A stretch of 64,000 nt of DNA from Candidatus Eiseniibacteriota bacterium (GCA_965224245.1 OZ245046.1:5184001-5248000); one strand, 5' to 3'; positions 25,644-53,126 are shown, numbered from the stretch's first letter. Notes: a model not told the origin generated them from the letters alone. Program-made: numbers and translations.

Positions 25644-28600
25644 ATGAATCTCAGAATCGGACGCCCAGTCCTCGTCGTGCTTGCCGCAATCACTTCGGTC
25701 GCGGCGATGACCTCGGCTTCGGCTCCGCTCACCGGCGGTGGGGATCGAGCCGCATGCTGCAACCAGTCGCACGATGTCGGACTCGACTTTCGCCGGGACA
25801 GCCCGGGAGCCGTCCCCGAGGCGGTCTCCGGATTCCAGCTTCCCATGGACAACCATCACTACGGTCTTTGCTACAAGCTCTGCGAGGCCGTGGACAGCTG
25901 TCCGGGCACGACGTTTCACCCCGGCGTCGATTTCAACGGGCCGGGTGACGGCGATGCGGATTGCGGTCTCGACGTGCGATCCGTCGCGACCGGACTCGTC
26001 CGCTGGGTCGACACCACGACCTGGGGCAGCATCGTCATCGAGCATCTGTATCAGGGACAGACGTGGTACTCGCAGTACGGCCACCTCGAGATCGCCGACG
26101 TCGTGGTGGGTCAGGCGGTTGCCCGCGGCGACAAGATCGGCGAGGTCGGCAAGGTCGGCGCCACGTCGTGCCATCTCCACTGGGAGATCCGCGAGTCCGA
26201 CCATCCAGCCCCAACCTATGGTCCTTTCTGGGACTGCAACGGCTTTCAGAGCCAGACGACGATCGAGGACTGGTACGAGGATCCGGAGGCATTCGTCGCC
26301 GGGCATGGCCCGTACGGAGAGAGCATCGTGGTGAGCGATCCCCTCGCGGTTTCGCCCACTCGGACCGATCCCATGACGATCTTCGCGCTCCCCGACGAGT
26401 ATGCCGGTGGCTTTCCCGAGGGAGGCGAGCGGAACCTCCTCGTTGGCTTTCGGCTCCGAAACGACGGCCCGGCGGACGTCCTTCTCGACAACTACGGCGT
26501 CGAGGTGTTGAAGGGCGGAGTCCATCAGTTCTTTCTCAGGCGCGATGCGTCCGTGTGGCTCCCGTCCGGCGGTGAGACGCCTGTCTTCGACATGAGAGGG
26601 TGGATCACCGACGACCGCCTGGACGGTCTCTCCGCTACCGAATTCGGCGCGATCGTGCAGTACCAGAAGGGAGGCGAGTGGTTCGACGCTGGTGGCGATG
26701 ACGCGACCGCAACGTTCACCGTGTTCCCGCGGCCGCCCTTGGCGGACCGCATGCTCGTCAAGCGTCCGCGAGCCGAGGGCGAGACCGATCCCGAGACCGC
26801 TCGCATCCATCATCATCAGCATGGATTCAAGTGGTGGATAACCAGCTCGACCACCGCCGACAACCTGTTTCCGGGCTGGAGCCAGACGTTCTACGTCTAC
26901 CCGTCAGGTGAAGTCACCGCGCTCGCGGTCCCTCGACACCCCGACCACGACGGCACCACACCGGTCGTCGCCGGGCGGAATCTCCTGGTGATCCGAGAAG
27001 GCTCTCCGACCGTGTACATCCTCGAGCCCGAGCCGAGCGGTGGACCGTTGCGACTACGGCCGTTCGCCGACGAGGCGGCCTTCTGGGCCTATGGGTACGA
27101 TTCCACGGGCCCCGATCACGACCTCGTCACGCAACCCATCCTCGTGGAGCACGGCTGGTCGTGGCTGGAGGCGGCCTACCCCGTCGGGTCCACGATCGAA
27201 CCACCTGCGGAGGACCCGATCCTCTCGGTAACCCCCGACCACCAAGACGTCGACTGGCCATCGGGCAACGGGTTCTTCGACGTCTGGAATCAGGGCGGCG
27301 GCGAGATGACGTGGACCTCCGAGGTGATCGTCGGCGCGGAGTGGCTCCACATCATCGGTGGAAGCACGGGAGTCGACGGCGGGACCATCAGCTTCCTTGC
27401 CGACGTCAACCCGGTCACCGCACCGCGATCGGGGACGATCCGCGTAACCGCGCCCGGCGCCGCCGGCAGCCCGGCCGACGTGGTCGTCAATCAAGCCGCT
27501 GGCCCCGGGACGAGCGTGCTCTACGTCTGTCCTGACGGCACTGCCGAGTACGCGACCATCCAGGACGCGATCGACGCCGCGATCCCCGGCGACGTCGTCC
27601 TGCTCTGCGACGGCGTGTACAGCGGTCCCGGCAACCGGACCGTCCAGTTTCGCGGCAAGGACATCACCGTGCGATCCGAGAGCGGTGATCCGTCCACCTG
27701 CGTCATCGACGTCGGAGGCGCCACCGGATCGGACACGGGTTTCTACTTCGGCGAGTTCGAGTCCGACGCAGCCGCTCTCGCGTACGTGACGATCACCAAT
27801 GGCGGCTGGGCAACCGCGGGGGCGGTCTGGGTGGCGTACTCCTCTCCGGTCATCGAAGGCTGCGTGTTCGAGGGGAACTTCGCGTCGGAGCGAGGCGGCG
27901 CGGTCAACATCGCCGGCGACAGTGAGTGCAGGATCGAGGGCTGCGTGTTTCGCGACAACGAGGCGGTGGGCTGGGGCGGTGCGATCTACCTCTCCGGAAG
28001 TTCCGCCACGATCGTCGGGAACGTGTTCGAGGACAACTCCGCCGACTTCGGTGGTGCCATTCGTGTGTCCGCATCGGCCGACGGGTCGGTCATCGCCGGC
28101 AACGTCTTCCGTCGGAATCGCGGCAAGGGGGCTGCCCTCTGGGTCGGTGCCAACGAGGTGTTGATCGAGGACAACGTGTTCGATCGGAATGGACCGGTCG
28201 CCGGGGGAAGTGACAAGGGCTCGGTGTTCGTCGGCATGGCGTCGCCGACGCTCTCCCGGAACACGTTCGTGAACAGCCGGGGCACCGCGGTCTGGTGCTC
28301 GTGGGAGGCGGATGCGGTCGTCGAGGCCAACATCATCACCGGGTCGGCCGCATGGGGCATGGTCTGCGAGCCCGATGGTGTTCACCTCCCGGAGCCGACC
28401 ATCCACTGCAACGCGTTCTGGGAGAACGCGAGCGGAGACTTCTGCGGCATCGACCTGGGTGGAAACTTCCACCTCGACCCTCAGATCTGCGTGGGAGACA
28501 CGACGTCGTACGGACTGGCCGACACGTCCCCGTGCCGGCCCGGCCAGCACCCGGACGGCATGGCATGTGGTCGCATCGGTGCGAGCGACTCCGTCTGCGT

Positions 28601-28904
28601 ACTGCTCGACGTCCACTCTCCGCCAGAACGGCCGCAAGCGGTCGTGTCCGTATGGCCGAATCCCGTCCGGGGTCAGGTGCGGATCGCGGGCCCCATTCTG
28701 GACGGTACACCTGCCCGATCGTCCGTCTACGACCCCACCGGTCGTCGCGTGTGCTCGCTGGACGTCACCGAGTCTCCAGACCGGGCCAGCGCAATCTGGG
28801 ATGGGTGCGATGATTCGGGACGCCCGGTGCCGCCCGGGGTCTACTTCCTGCGCTGGGGATCGGCTGAGAGAGGGACCTCGGCGCGGATCGTCTTGATCGA
28901 GTGA
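25644..28904 (+). CDS. Exported M23 metallopeptidase + BACON + right-handed beta-helix + FlgD-Ig/T9SS-like CTD
   Basis: HPGVD (HxxxD), YGHL, HLHWEIR (HxH); BACON '...RSGTIRVTAPGA...VVVNQAA'; 'YATIQDAIDAA..GD' and F..N.A..GGA repeats; PNP...YDPTGRRV...WDG...PGVYF. Confidence 0.85.
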   Translation: MNLRIGRPVLVVLAAITSVAAMTSASAPLTGGGDRAACCNQSHDVGLDFRRDSPGAVPEAVSGFQLPMDNHHYGLCYKLCEAVDSCPGTTFHPGVDFNGPGDGDADCGLDVRSVATGLVRWVDTTTWGSIVIEHLYQGQTWYSQYGHLEIADVVVGQAVARGDKIGEVGKVGATSCHLHWEIRESDHPAPTYGPFWDCNGFQSQTTIEDWYEDPEAFVAGHGPYGESIVVSDPLAVSPTRTDPMTIFALPDEYAGGFPEGGERNLLVGFRLRNDGPADVLLDNYGVEVLKGGVHQFFLRRDASVWLPSGGETPVFDMRGWITDDRLDGLSATEFGAIVQYQKGGEWFDAGGDDATATFTVFPRPPLADRMLVKRPRAEGETDPETARIHHHQHGFKWWITSSTTADNLFPGWSQTFYVYPSGEVTALAVPRHPDHDGTTPVVAGRNLLVIREGSPTVYILEPEPSGGPLRLRPFADEAAFWAYGYDSTGPDHDLVTQPILVEHGWSWLEAAYPVGSTIEPPAEDPILSVTPDHQDVDWPSGNGFFDVWNQGGGEMTWTSEVIVGAEWLHIIGGSTGVDGGTISFLADVNPVTAPRSGTIRVTAPGAAGSPADVVVNQAAGPGTSVLYVCPDGTAEYATIQDAIDAAIPGDVVLLCDGVYSGPGNRTVQFRGKDITVRSESGDPSTCVIDVGGATGSDTGFYFGEFESDAAALAYVTITNGGWATAGAVWVAYSSPVIEGCVFEGNFASERGGAVNIAGDSECRIEGCVFRDNEAVGWGGAIYLSGSSATIVGNVFEDNSADFGGAIRVSASADGSVIAGNVFRRNRGKGAALWVGANEVLIEDNVFDRNGPVAGGSDKGSVFVGMASPTLSRNTFVNSRGTAVWCSWEADAVVEANIITGSAAWGMVCEPDGVHLPEPTIHCNAFWENASGDFCGIDLGGNFHLDPQICVGDTTSYGLADTSPCRPGQHPDGMACGRIGASDSVCVLLDVHSPPERPQAVVSVWPNPVRGQVRIAGPILDGTPARSSVYDPTGRRVCSLDVTESPDRASAIWDGCDDSGRPVPPGVYFLRWGSAERGTSARIVLIE

Positions 28905-29044
28905 TGCGGGTTCGACACGACCCTGCGCGGGCCCCGACTACGGCCGAGCCTCCCGCGCCGGGTCCTCGGTCTCCCGGGACGCCAGCCGGCCGGAGCCGAG
29001 GCCCGATTGACTCACGACGTCCATCGAAGGTGGAAGGAGGGCAC

Positions 29045-29767
29045 ATGTCCACGTGGCAGAAGGCGAGCCTGGTCGGATCGGGGATCGTGGTCGCAGCCTT
29101 CTTCGCCCCCTGGGCAGGACCCCGGATCGGACTCCATGTCGTCGTCGTGTCGCTTCAGATGCTGGAGCGCCATGGCCGAGACTGGATCCTGGTCGGAGTC
29201 ACCAACATGCTGTTCATACTCCTGCCCCTGGTCTGCCATTCGCTCAATCTGCTCGGCCGTGCAAGACGTCGCGTGAGAAGCCTCGTCCTCGTTTCGATAC
29301 CGCTCGCGTTCTGGATACTGGTCTTCGTCTACGCCTCGGCGGGCGCCGGGCGGTCGGTCCTTCCGGCCTCGCAGGAGGTGATGACGAGCCCTGGTTTCAT
29401 GGCCACGCTGCTGGGGCAGCTGGTCGCCGTAAAGGGAGGTTTCATGACGCAATCGGCAACCGAGACCGGGGGGAGCGAGATTCGAACCTCCCCGGCCCGA
29501 GAGATCGATGCCGGCGCGCCCGGCAGGTTTCGTGTACCGGTCACGGTTTTCGTCATCGCGGCGGTCGTCCTGATCGGCAGCGTCATCTGGAATCAGGTCG
29601 CGCAGGACGCGTATCGAGAGGCGTTCTGGAGCTGGGGTGGTGCCGGCGAAGAGAGCGCCAAGCTACAGGTTCAGGTCTCCAGGGTACTCCAGTACGTCGG
29701 GGGCGCGGGGGCGGCGCTGGGGCTGATCCTCGCCATCTTGGCTGCGGCTGGAAGGAGGGAGACCTGA
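29045..29767 (+). CDS. Hypothetical integral membrane protein
   Basis: About 6 hydrophobic segments; GGAGG RBS before ATG at 29045. Confidence 0.55.
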   Translation: MSTWQKASLVGSGIVVAAFFAPWAGPRIGLHVVVVSLQMLERHGRDWILVGVTNMLFILLPLVCHSLNLLGRARRRVRSLVLVSIPLAFWILVFVYASAGAGRSVLPASQEVMTSPGFMATLLGQLVAVKGGFMTQSATETGGSEIRTSPAREIDAGAPGRFRVPVTVFVIAAVVLIGSVIWNQVAQDAYREAFWSWGGAGEESAKLQVQVSRVLQYVGGAGAALGLILAILAAAGRRET

Positions 29768-29904
29768 CCGCCGGGTCCCGGGCACAGACTGCTCGCGGAC
29801 CTCGATCTCCTCCGTCGCCCAGAAGTCGTGTACCCTCCTGGGGGGTCGAGGCCGACTCGACCCCCGACCCGCCCACACATGACACCCTATCCCGGAGGGG
29901 ACCC

Positions 29905-31966
29905 ATGAAGAAGATGCTCGTGGCCGCGACGATGCTCGCGACATGGATGGCGTCGACGTCCGCGCTCGCGGAGCCGCGCATGGTGCTCATGGAGAAGCTC
30001 ACGAACACCGCTTGACCGACCTGTCCAGGAGCCAGCCGTGCGCTGGAGGAGATTCTTTCCAAGCATCCGGATACGGTCACGTCCCATTGCCTACCACACC
30101 TGGTGGCCCAGCTCGGCAGACCCGTACTATCAGTACAACGTCCCCGAGAACAATGCGCGCATCAACTACTACGGCGCCGTCTTCACCCCGCACGTCTACA
30201 TCGACGGTCTGATCGACGGCGGATCCGGAGGCGATTGGGAGTCCGTGGTCCTCGACCGGGCGGCCGTCGAGAGCCCGCTCCGGATCGAGCTGTCCGGTGA
30301 CCCCGGTGCCAGCACCATCACCGCGGTAATCACGAACACGAGCGCCGGACTGGTGTCCGGGCAGCTCCGGTTCGTGCTGATGGAGAACGGGCTGTTCCAC
30401 TCGGGCAACCCGCACGACCGGGTCATGCGCGACTTCTTCGCCCCGTCGAGCACCACGGGTGAGTCGATCCTGCTCGCGCCGGGAGAGGAGATCACGCGGG
30501 TCGAGACCTTCTCGGTGGACCCGATCTTCGTCGAGGACGAGCTCCAGTGCGTCGTCTACGTTCAGAACGACGGCACCAAGGAGATCCACCAGGCGGCCAC
30601 GATCTACTTCCAGCTCGACGAGCCCGAGCTGGCGGCGTCCACGATCTCCACCGACGATTCGGCCGGCGGCGACGGCAACGGGCGACTGGACCCGGGCGAG
30701 ACCGCCGACGTGGCCGTCGATCTCTTCAACCTGAACCCGGTCGACGCCAGCGCGGTGACGGGCGTGCTCTCCTCCACCGATCCGGCGCTCACGATCGGCG
30801 ATGCGGCGGGAAGCTGGCCGGACATCCCCGGGGGCACCTCGGCCGACAACGCGGCCGATCCGTTCGGCGTGTCGGTCGACGGCGAGACGCCGTGGGGCTA
30901 CGAGATCCCGGTCACGCTGACCGTGAACGCAAACGACGGCTACGTGAAGGAGATCGACCTCGACCTGCCGGTGGGCTCCCCGACCCACCCGATGGGTCCG
31001 GACGCGGGTCAGTACTACACGTACGAGGACCTGGACCCCTATGACCCGTCACCGGTGTTCGACTGGATCGAGATCGATCCGACCCTGGGCGGCCCGGGCA
31101 CGCTGTTCACGCTGGGCGACGACCAGACCCGCACGACGACGATCCCGTTCGCATTCCAGCTCTACGGCGTCAGCTCCACGACGCTGTCGATCTCGTCGAA
31201 CGGCTTTCTCGCGGTGGGCGCGACGTCGAACCGCGACAACAGTCCCGGCGAGATCCCCGGTCCCGAGGGTCCGCCGAGCATGATCGCCGGCTACTGGATG
31301 GACCTGAACCCGGTCGCCACGGGCGGCGGCAAGGTCTATACGTATGACGACGCGGCCAACGATCGCTACATCGTCGAGTTCTCCGGCGTCGAGCACTACG
31401 ACGGCGCGGGACTCGGACCGGCCGAGACGTTCCAGTTCATCCTGTACGATCCGTCGGTGTACCCCACGCCGACCGGTGACGGCCAGATCGTCATCCAGTA
31501 TCTCGTGGTCAGCGACCCGTCGCGCTGCGCGGTGGGCATCGAGGACCAGACCGAGACGATCGGCACGCAGTACCTGTCGGTCGGTCACCTGAACGCCGCC
31601 GCCCACGGCCTGGCCGCAGGGCGGGCGATCAAGTTCACGACGATCCCGCCGGACGGCTTCGTCTCGGTGGATCCGATCCTGCCGCCACCGAGCGCCGCGA
31701 TGCTGGCCGCGCGCCCCAATCCGTTCCGATCGGGGGCGACGATCCGCTACTCGCTCCCGGTGGCCGGTCACGCCACCGTGCGCGTGTACACGCTCGGCGG
31801 GGCACTGGTCCGGACCCTCCTCGACGGGGAAGTCGGCGCCGGCTGGGGTCAGCTGTCCTGGGATGGCACCGACCGCCGCGGCGTCGCATTGCCCGCCGGC
31901 ATCTATCTGTACGAGATCGAAGGAGCAGGCTACGAGGCGTCGGGACGCCTCGTGCGGCTCCGCTGA
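29905..31966 (+). CDS. Probable selenoprotein: exported Omp28/thioredoxin-like UxxC protein with FlgD-Ig CTD; in-frame UGA at 30013-30015 and a +1 frameshift near 30082
   Basis: MKKMLVAATMLATWMASTSALA signal peptide, RMVLMEKLTNTA-TGA-PTC, then (after removing one base) PIAYHTWWP..DPYY..N..ENNARINYY...TPHVYIDG, typical of Omp28-like domains. Confidence 0.75.
30032..30046 (+). promoter_or_regulatory. Candidate bacterial SECIS hairpin
   Basis: CCAGC-CGTGC-GCTGG starting 16 nt after the UGA, G in second loop position. Confidence 0.5.
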
Positions 31967-31984
31967 TCGACCCTCACTCGACCT

Positions 31985-32014
31985 CGCCGGGCGAGCCGAC
32001 ACGCTCGCCCGGCG
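31985..32014 (+). terminator. GC-rich hairpin after the Omp28-like gene (no U-tract)
   Basis: CGCCGGGCGAGC-cgacac-GCTCGCCCGGCG, 12-bp stem. Confidence 0.35.
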
Positions 32015-32045
32015 GGGCGCTGGCACGTCGAGTGACCGCTCCCAG

Positions 32046-32095
32046 GTGGTGGCAATCCCCGGGTGTCGGTAATCCCCGGCGTTGGCATCACCGAG
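32046..32095 (-). repeat. Short array (2-3 units) of the 17-bp repeat, inverted relative to the 33433-33806 array
   Basis: Reverse complements read CCGGGGATTGCCACCAC (32046-32062) and CCGGGGATTACCGACAC (32063-32079). Confidence 0.7.
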
Positions 32096-32479
32096 CGCTG
32101 GCGGCCACCGAGTGCATCGGATCCCGGGGCGTACCCGTCGTTCTGCGGCGGGTGACCGTCGCCGTCGTGGGGCTTGCGGTCGTCATCGTCTTCCGCGGTG
32201 CTACCGATGCGGTACCCGGGTATGAGAGACGCTCCGGACTGCGGGCGGTTCGGTCACAAGGTGCGGGCGAGGGATCCGTGCCGGCGCGCACGATGCGATC
32301 CCCTCGCCAGCCGCCGCTGTTCCCCGACCGCCGCGTTCGCTCCGAACATCCCCGTCGTGAGTGTGCCATGAGCCGCTGTCACTTCGCCGTCCGCCCCGAC
32401 ATCGCACTCGGTCGACGTGACGTCGAGCGCGATCGACGTCGCGCATGCCGCCGCCTCGAACGCGTGCAGTGCGTCGAGG

Positions 32480-33364
32480 GTCGCGCCGGCATCGCGGTGG
32501 CGCTGACCTCGGATTCGGCGGCTCGCTGGATCGAGCTCGCGTCGACGCTCTCCCGGCGGGCACTCGAGCAGCGCATCGCGGAGGCGAGGAGCCGGGCCCG
32601 GCGCGTCGCCGCGGATGACCCCGGACAGGCGGCGATCGGTGTCGGGGAGTCGGCACCGCTGGAGCCCGTCGGGGTCCTCGAGACGCGCGCGGAGCCGAGC
32701 CGGGTCTCGAGATCGACCGACACCGCACCCTCCGACGCAGAGGCGAGCGTTCCCGAGGTGGAGGTCGAGCTACGCGTAACGCTCGATCCCGTCACGCATG
32801 CGCATGCGGAGGCCGCGTGGGCGCAGGCGAGCGTACGGCTTTCGCGGGTCGAAGGCGGAGTTCGTGGCGGCTGCGATGTCGGCGTACGCGGCGAGCTTGG
32901 CCTCCGCGGGAAGGATCGAGACGGATACCAGGCCCGAGCGCAGAGAGGTCGCGACTCCCGAGACGTCATCGTCCGTGGGCGGCACGGCAACGCCGACGGT
33001 GCCTCGGTCGACCTATCGGATCGTCGTGGTCGAGTGCCCATCGTCTCGCCGGGCCCGCGTCGGGGACCGACCGATCTCCGAGTCTGCGCGGCGGGCCATC
33101 TTCTCCGATGCCGACGTCGTCGACGACCGAGGGCGCCGCCGTGCCACGATCCCGCCGAGGCTCAGGCGGCGTGTGCTTTGGCGCGACGGGCATCGATGCA
33201 CGATACCCGGGTGTGAGAATCGACAGCACCTCGCCATTCACCACCGGGTCCCGGTCGAGCTCGGCGGATGAAACACGCCCGAGAGCCTGACGACGCCGTG
33301 CTGGCGGTGTCACGCGTCGCTTCACGCGATGCCGGACGCCGTCGCCCGGACCGTGCGGTTATGA
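32480..33364 (+). pseudogene. Degraded HNH endonuclease (DUF222-like architecture)
   Basis: 'ARWIELASTLSRRALEQRIA', frameshift near 32830, then TIPPRLRRRVLWRDGHRCTIPGC...IHHRVPVELGG*NTPESLTTPCWRCH with an in-frame TGA at 33269-33271; 5' boundary approximate. Confidence 0.8.
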
Positions 33365-52717: not shown

Positions 52718-53065
52718 TCACATGAGGCGCAGGCCGCAATCGGGACACTCCTCGGTGCCCGACGGAGATCGATGCTGGCACGCGGGACACGTGATCTCCG
52801 GTGCGTCGTGATCGATGAACGCGGCCGCCGCGGCGCGCTCCTCCTCGGAGGCCTGCTCGAGCCAGTCCGACTCGATGAGCGACATGGCCGACTGTGCGTC
52901 GTGGCTCGCGACCGCGAGCCAGACCTTGGTGCCTCAGGAGTTCGCGGCCGACGGCGGGGCGACCAGCTCCGCGTCGACGCCGGCGCCCCGGAGGCGGGCT
53001 CGGATCGGCTTCAGATCGGGCAGGCGCCCTTCCAGCAACACGACGATTTCCGGCTCTTCGGTCAC
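52718..53065 (-). CDS. Probable selenoprotein (115 aa, Sec44) with C-terminal CxxC-x10-CxxC zinc ribbon; absent from the ORF track
   Basis: GAGGA RBS 7 nt before GTG 53065; MTEEPEIVVLLEGRLPDLKPIRARLRGAGVDAELVAPPSAANS-TGA(52936-52934)-GTKVWLAVASHDAQSAMSLIESDW...CPACQHRSPSGTEECPDCGLRLM*. Confidence 0.85.
52902..52921 (-). promoter_or_regulatory. Bacterial SECIS element
   Basis: UGGCUCGC-GGUC-GCGAGCCA perfect 8-bp hairpin beginning 12 nt after the UGA; spacing and GGUC apex resemble the E. coli fdhF SECIS. Confidence 0.8.
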
Positions 53066-53092
53066 GATGAGATCCTCATGAAACGCGGCGGC

Positions 53093-53126
53093 AAAAAGCG
53101 ACCCCACCTTCTCGAGGTGGGGTCGC
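53093..53126 (-). terminator. Rho-independent terminator downstream of the LanC-like gene
   Basis: Minus strand GCGACCCCACC-tcgagaa-GGTGGGGTCGC-TTTTT. Confidence 0.8.

Follow-up and report, generated by a model that had tools for sequence, protein, structure and literature searches.

Introduction

Thioredoxin-like proteins with selenocysteine (Sec, U) in a UxxC motif were reported in 2008 by Zhang and Gladyshev under the name GOS_C, for which that survey (PMC2398784) gives a Trx-like fold, 74 sequences with Sec and 312 homologs with Cys. A table of a 2026 review lists NF045500 as 'hypothetical protein GOS_C' with UxxC and one Sec (PMC13188914). For HBP35, thioredoxin activity of the recombinant protein in vitro, abolished by mutation of both active-site cysteines, is described in one study (PMC2907840), and Por-secretion-dependent export is reported by the title of another (PMC3120885). 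No publication tying Omp28/HBP35-type proteins, type IX secretion (T9SS) and selenocysteine together was found in a search of partial coverage, and the deep-Sep paper (PMC12013277) leaves Omp28, the outer membrane and secretion unmentioned. In the present study a gene bearing on all three was analyzed, which lies at positions 29905-31966 on the plus strand of a stretch of 64,000 nucleotides from a Candidatus Eiseniibacteriota bacterium (OZ245046.1:5184001-5248000, here G000:C1:5184001-5248000, from a 6.94-Mb genome with a completeness of 97%). The whole stretch is called the window in the following, and positions are counted from its first base.

A preliminary description of the window had regarded this gene as encoding an exported selenoenzyme of about 686 amino acids (aa). 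According to the analysis presented here, the locus would be the genome's ortholog of a conserved exported family, the members of which would have a signal peptide, then a thioredoxin-fold domain of the Omp28/HBP35 type with UxxC, and after it probably an Ig-like domain, a beta module of uncharacterised kind and, at the C-terminus, a sorting domain of the T9SS type. The best explanation overall, to which a probability of about two in three is given, is that this ortholog belongs to an exported UxxC selenoprotein family and that the copy in the window has most likely been inactivated recently.

Results

Structure of the locus and its two interruptions

The gene is interrupted twice, by an in-frame TGA and by a one-base frameshift, after which the reading frame changes from the one opened by ATG 29905 (frame A) to a second one (frame B). 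All features of the locus are on the plus strand:

29894..29898 (+): GGAGG, Shine-Dalgarno-like, by direct reading six bases from ATG 29905
29905..30012 (+): frame A, codons 1-36, with the signal-peptide-like N-terminus MKKMLVAATMLATWMASTSALA and the first strand RMVLMEKLTNTA, which align to the N-terminal ends of the orthologs
30013..30015 (+): in-frame TGA in place of the first Cys of CxxC (U-P-T-C), the putative Sec codon of the family
30016..30084 (+): frame A after the TGA, PTCPGASRALEEILSKHPDTVTS, the first helix of the thioredoxin fold, colinear with PGCPAASRVLDQIVANHPEMVAT of the orthologs
30032-36, 30037-41 and 30042-46 (+): hairpin CCAGC / CGTGC / GCTGG, resembling a selenocysteine insertion sequence (SECIS) and starting 16 nt past the UGA
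30083..30085 (+): CCC run with one base too many compared with orthologs, a +1 frameshift; frame B restarts with ATT 30086
30086..30661 (+): frame B, remainder of the Omp28/HBP35-like domain (IAYHTWWPSSADPYY...), thioredoxin fold and beta-sandwich
30662..31714 (+): frame B, Ig-like domain followed by an all-beta module of about 220 aa, according to an AlphaFold2 (AF2) model
31763..31924 (+): FlgD_ig-type C-terminal domain, T9SS-type sorting, by Pfam
31964..31966 (+): final stop codon, TGA

The GGAGG, the ATG, the signal peptide, the TGA followed by P-T-C and the hairpin had all been placed correctly in the preliminary description. From ATG 29905 to the TGA, frame A is translated as MKKMLVAATMLATWMASTSALAEPRMVLMEKLTNTA, and past 30084 it turns into arginine-rich nonsense in the three-frame translation. 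The Omp28-type sequence 'AYHxWWP..DPYY', described earlier as the downstream part of the same gene, is indeed present; it is located in frame +1, outside the frame of the ATG and the TGA (open reading frame (ORF) 30038-31966), so that the second break had been overlooked.

The TGA at the cysteine column of the family

Nine orthologous DNA copies were compared with the window gene. They stem from five genomes and two metagenome contigs (G032, G001, G012, G062, G060 with three tandem copies, and one copy on each contig). Their identity to the window protein, where determined, is 52-59%. In all nine, TGA occupies the column of the U and is followed by P/G-x-C, with a signal peptide upstream in the same frame. 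Each of the three tandem orthologs at G060:C9:66710-73369 possesses both the TGA and an identical hairpin block. Intact orthologs comprise 679-693 aa and end in a FlgD_ig-type domain.

Relatives with cysteine at this position, expected in the preliminary description, were found as well: P0008 is a full-length Cys ortholog of 686 aa with 55% identity (...FSNTSCPYCPAAS...), and the distant family members divide into eight loci with TGA and eight with Cys at the U column. The family thus alternates between TGA and Cys where a thioredoxin-type CxxC has its first Cys, the place given to the UGA in the earlier reading. As an observation aside, a relative in a metagenome-assembled genome of the Bacteroidetes (L055) displays the Cys form.

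It could be assumed that the TGA functions as a normal nonsense or stop codon, the family not being decoded with Sec and its matches being pseudogenes or separate short ORFs. Gene callers do take the TGA as a stop, and the hairpin of the window is weak (see below), both of which would suit such a view. Yet at the Cys column TGA, never TAA or TAG, was present in the window copy and in 17 of 17 other TGA loci examined, the signal peptide always lying 5' of the TGA and the remainder of the domain 3' of it in one frame. A profile scan across 206 genomes of the phylum yielded 50 with a match at E<=1e-10, and among the 150 matches listed 82 displayed exactly one in-frame TGA (hand count; one of them also with a TAG); the other 68, including the window's own partial match, were without a stop, 74 further matches lay beyond those listed, and the TGA column itself was verified in the named loci only. 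Two related families are, moreover, curated as selenoproteins, and the Sec machinery of the genome is complete. Decoding as a mere stop is therefore regarded as very improbable. Preliminarily, it had also been considered that close relatives might all carry TGY at this column, which would have marked the TGA as a nonsense mutation; TGA in nine of nine orthologs and a hairpin block invariant in ten of ten sequences speak otherwise. Reassignment of TGA throughout the genome was rejected, as TGA also terminates the window gene and its paralog in the same genome.

The database entries for the family are in accordance with a recoded TGA. Apart from P0008, about 40 orthologs of 622-651 aa were found, and the nine examined begin 7-25 residues past the U column, an N-terminal truncation that gene callers would produce by stopping at TGA. 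A search for related loci in the contigs of genomes returned eight loci, none of them an ortholog, and the metagenome scan returned just two.

The machinery for Sec, the absence of which would have spoken against the earlier proposal, was detected in the window's genome: a tRNA-Sec (Rfam RF01852, 71.9 bits, cut-off 47; tRNA-SeC with anticodon tca by ARAGORN), SelA (515.8 bits, cut-off 267.9), SelB (324 bits, cut-off 242.25; 353.4 if a second matched stretch in frame is included) and SelD (378.4 bits, cut-off 125). The selD gene at G000:C1:4218184-4219107 has one in-frame TGA, and SelD of this genome is itself a Sec-containing protein. Taken as a comparison of sequences, these results lead to the view that UGA holds as the Sec codon of the family, by which Sec would be inserted in place of the first cysteine in a CxxC of thioredoxin type.

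The hairpin downstream of the UGA

By the proposed mechanism, the small conserved hairpin 16 nt 3' of the UGA would direct the insertion of Sec. The block GCCAGCCGTG[T/C]GCTGGA is invariant in the window and all nine orthologs, synonymous sites included, and its Ser, Arg and Leu are encoded exclusively by AGC, CGT and CTG in ten of ten sequences; at each of the conserved residues nearby (Val -10, Thr -4, Asn -3, Cys +3, Pro +4 and Pro +18), between two and five different codons occur. The loop variant CGUGC of the window also occurs in three intact orthologs, and the 16-nt spacing together with a CGUGY loop agrees with the bSECISearch model.

Several properties weigh against such a role. The stem comprises only 5 bp, and in the 40 nt from the UGA the fold has a z-score of +1.12, with 176 of 200 shuffled sequences folding at least equally well (z 0.31 for 60 nt). 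Nor was covariation detected across the ten sequences, in which the stem never varies. The hairpin of the preliminary description is consequently present and invariant, with a stability no better than chance, and its significance arises from the comparison as conservation at RNA level without covariation. A search of 29000-32500 against Rfam at a lax threshold gave five sub-threshold chance matches and no SECIS family.

A different hairpin was found in the paralog of the same genome (G000:C1:2703832-2704614, minus strand; L021:833-1615), which encodes 260 aa with a signal peptide and FTNYA-U-GIC, shows no frameshift and has no FlgD_ig domain. Its strong SECIS-like hairpin is longer and reaches a z-score of -3.67, equalled by none of 200 shuffles, and in the short subfamily to which it belongs two of nine stem pairs are kept by compensatory changes. 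In place of the sorting domain, these forms of 260-263 aa carry the motif W-[GS]-x-[IL]-K-x-x-Y at the C-terminus.

The frameshift and the state of the window copy

Aligned as DNA with three orthologs, the window was longer by exactly one base. The gap was set at window base 30081, its placement being ambiguous within 30079-30085, and the CCC run at 30083-85 is the simplest assignment. If the extra base is ignored, HPDTVTS joined to IAYHTWWP is colinear with HPEMVAT joined to IAVHAWWP of the orthologs. The shift is situated 24 codons past the TGA, after which frame B continues open over 626 codons, and none of the nine orthologous DNA copies is shifted at this place.

The stretch is present in four public runs, three of one sample (X1-X3) and one of another (X4). 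Contigs of X1 (16.6 kb, depth 9), X2 (16.2 kb, depth 12.4) and X3 (348 nt, depth 2) span the frameshift with 0 differences and 0 gaps, and 541 of 541 sampled 31-mers of window 28000-33000 occur in X1 and X2. Because these separately built read contigs match the window, the extra base was not introduced by assembly or polishing. Located in the CCC of 30083-30085, it would split the signal peptide and the active site, in frame A, from the 626 codons of frame B, whereby the copy would be inactivated, and recently so, as frame B is still open and aligned with orthologs over its whole length. The window copy is thus most likely a recently frameshifted pseudogene, a loss of function suggested by its reading frames, and the protein of about 686 aa that had been assigned to it is blocked by a shift that is seen in the read contigs too.

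Three observations count against this conclusion. X1-X3 represent a single sample, from which the assembly itself may have been made, and contigs lose minority variants, so that a sequencing error or a mixed population retains some probability. X4, the second sample, has no contig across 30037-30272. Finally, the 626 codons of frame B are otherwise unbroken and aligned to orthologs up to the C-terminal domain, which would equally suit a functional gene with one wrong base. The gene might accordingly be functional and unbroken, the additional C at 30083-85 being an error of sequencing or consensus or a minority or strain variant, and the full selenoprotein being made; Shine-Dalgarno sequence, signal peptide, UGA and hairpin are all undamaged. 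An ortholog in the long-contig genome G012 (G012:C4:605967-607863; L027/L066/L081) is likewise split over two frames near residue 340-440, being either a broken copy or an assembly indel, and hints at indel errors in such assemblies. Set against this are the identical contigs of three runs, and a three-base homopolymer is an atypical site for errors. We consider an intact gene unlikely, though by no means negligible.

A programmed +1 ribosomal frameshift at UCC-C would be another way to restore the frame, in which case two recoding events, Sec insertion and a +1 shift, would occur within one gene. The shift required is indeed +1 at a UCC codon followed by C, and the antizyme site likewise shifts at UCC. 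All nine orthologs, however, stay in one frame here, the A site would be CAU, neither a stop nor an evidently slow codon, and no Shine-Dalgarno-like stimulator lies just upstream; a conserved downstream structure was not seen, none having been sought. Because of the nine unshifted copies and the missing stimulator, programmed shifting is judged highly improbable, and recent decay of the window copy is preferred.

Domain architecture, fold and probable export

The ORF at 30038-31963 matched Pfam Omp28 (PF11551) with 29.2 bits over nt 30161-30601, below the cut-off of 34.9, which is passed by the intact relatives P0008 (57.7), the own-genome paralog (49.4) and L028 (35.8). The part of frame B at 30086-30661 is 55-59% identical to intact orthologs. 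For residues 1-250 of an ortholog, AF2 gave a model (pLDDT 86.9) with a strand at 27-33, a helix at 40-53 and C37 (the U position) and C40 between them. The best Foldseek match of this domain was HBP35 (5y1a; E 3.3e-12, TMq 0.75, 252 columns), followed by matches to 2axo (DUF1223, thioredoxin-like) and 2r2c (Omp28 domain). The family profile aligned the CxxC with the CPHC active site of thioredoxin 1fo5 and matched 2r2c with E 7.6e-6.

The middle region of the window protein was modelled with a pLDDT of 90.9. Its residues 1-105 resemble generic Ig/MG-like domains (Z about 10, VIA-align), and no Foldseek match at E<=0.001 and no Pfam family was found for the region, of which the second module was not searched alone. 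This all-beta module (residues ~115-335 of the segment 30662-31714) has a conserved S-x-S-N-G-F/W motif and recurs in proteins with M14 and C25 peptidases and T9SS-type tails. A NIDO label (PF06119) is precomputed for one relative, P0055.

At the C-terminus the FlgD_ig cut-off was exceeded (33.3 bits, cut-off 27), and TIGR04183 Por_Secre_tail remained below its own (20.6 bits, cut-off 23); the genome returned hundreds of tblastn matches to this domain. The N-terminus is hydrophobic and ends in ALA-EP, and was judged by eye to be a signal peptide. Of the secretion system itself, PorU (469.6 bits, cut-off 420) and SprA (540.1 bits summed, cut-off 200) are encoded, and a PorV-like gene adjoining PorU scores 92.8 bits, below the cut-off of 250. 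Export through the FlgD-Ig domain, as proposed earlier, is thereby made plausible for the intact orthologs, for which the domain itself was found. Intact relatives would cross the inner membrane via the Sec pathway and then leave by the type IX system, presumably to act at the cell surface as selenol/thiol-disulfide oxidoreductases. T9SS export and a surface redox role of the family are thus probable by analogy. Caution is advised on two counts, since the N-terminal fold was modelled on an ortholog (58% identity) and not on the window protein, and HBP35 is the sole analogue from which the redox function is drawn.

Other UGA candidates and neighbouring genes

A genome-wide scan for in-frame TGA based on the GC content of third codon positions (GC3), as had been suggested at the outset, did produce further UGA candidates. 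Being crude, with 113 sites that are mostly gene junctions and with both Omp28-like genes missed, it yields no count of the selenoproteome. A genome rich in selenoproteins, the former assumption, is nevertheless plausible in view of SelD, the two Omp28-like genes and redoxin-like candidates with UxxC.

These redoxin-like candidates have the contexts FFASW-U-VGCGP, GSIT-U-PYCG, FFASW-U-PVCGP and GHAT-U-GYC and are located in G000 C1 at 4156963 and 4437670 on the plus strand and at reverse-complement indices 1531003 and 6131512 (0-based). Two C-G-U-K contexts were recorded as candidate selenoproteins from the same scan. An ORF with GLAWRATM-TGA-FKECMTFA exists in four identical copies, three places in G000 C1 and C10:9435, and is probably a repeated mobile element, with the gene either ending or being recoded at the TGA. 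In the window itself, the other UGA case of the preliminary description, 52721-53107 on the minus strand, encodes a 129-aa zinc-ribbon protein with a TGA at 52934-52936 (...PPSAANS-U-GTKVWLAV...). Its best match in NCBIfam, at 74.9 bits (cut-off 130), is to NF049953, 'zinc ribbon-containing (seleno)protein DG', and its zinc-ribbon matches in Pfam are weak only.

Upstream of the locus, 25644-28904 (+) encodes a protein of 1086 aa with Peptidase_M23, BACON, a right-handed beta-helix and, as its tail, a weakly matching FlgD_ig domain; the ORF after it, of 288 aa at 28901-29767 (+), matched no family. Just past the stop codon, a GC-rich inverted repeat, CTCGCCGGGCGAG ... CTCGCCCGGCG, lies at 31975-32020 (+) without a T run, and a promoter and terminator scan over 29600-32300 gave no sites.

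Discussion

At the level of the family the UGA is real biology, and the window copy is probably dead. Unless confirmed at the level of reads, it ought to be left out of counts of working selenoproteins. Nearly all members are cut at the UGA by gene callers, and database entries are therefore 'hypothetical proteins' truncated at the N-terminus, with signal peptide and active site missing, a single entry among about 40 orthologs being complete at this end; herein lies the value of the family for annotation. It also offers a natural series of Sec and Cys forms of a secreted thioredoxin scaffold whose SECIS is very small, a series of use in studying why cells invest selenium in exported proteins.

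More tentatively, and with somewhat less than even confidence, the lineage may be seen as having expanded T9SS-sorted surface selenoproteins with UxxC, an extracellular selenoproteome that NF045500 does not cover, with at least two SECIS designs and a turnover by gene birth and decay. The matches listed in the phylum profile scan include up to 13 of the family in a single genome. If this holds true, the frameshifted copy in the window would be one example of gene decay.

Comparison with known systems

NF045500, curated as 'Omp28-related selenoprotein', was the best NCBIfam match of the 58-aa N-terminal piece of the window gene and of the orthologs. Against a cut-off of 200, P0008 scored 68.5, L025 58.6, the own-genome paralog 48 and the window pieces 26.3 and 16.2 bits, and no locus in the genome lay above that cut-off. 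The window family shares with NF045500/GOS_C an Omp28-like thioredoxin-fold protein with a UGA-encoded U in UxxC and the existence of Cys homologs; it differs in scores so far below the cut-off that it has to be regarded as a remote subfamily and no equivalog. The Ig-like domain, the beta modules of uncharacterised type and the FlgD_ig domain would be additions of the window family.

With HBP35, the 35-kDa hemin-binding protein of Porphyromonas gingivalis and a T9SS cargo of known structure (5y1a), the orthologs have the fold of the N-terminal domain in common, whereas HBP35 possesses CxxC instead of UxxC, lacks the Ig-like and beta modules and is 15% identical. The Omp28 lipoprotein family (PF11551, NF033782, 2r2c) is resembled in the beta-sandwich half, which matches Pfam Omp28, and two orthologs reach 58.7-67.3 bits with NF033782, below the cut-off of 150; unlike these lipoproteins, no lipoprotein signal was seen in the window family. 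As in bacterial SECIS elements such as that of E. coli fdhF, a stem-loop with a G in the apical loop follows soon after the UGA, but in contrast to a typical one the window hairpin has 5 bp, is thermodynamically undistinctive and is backed by invariance instead of covariation. Thus, the Omp28-related UxxC selenoprotein is a kind already known, represented here by a remote subfamily that has a putative T9SS sorting domain and is expanded in one lineage.

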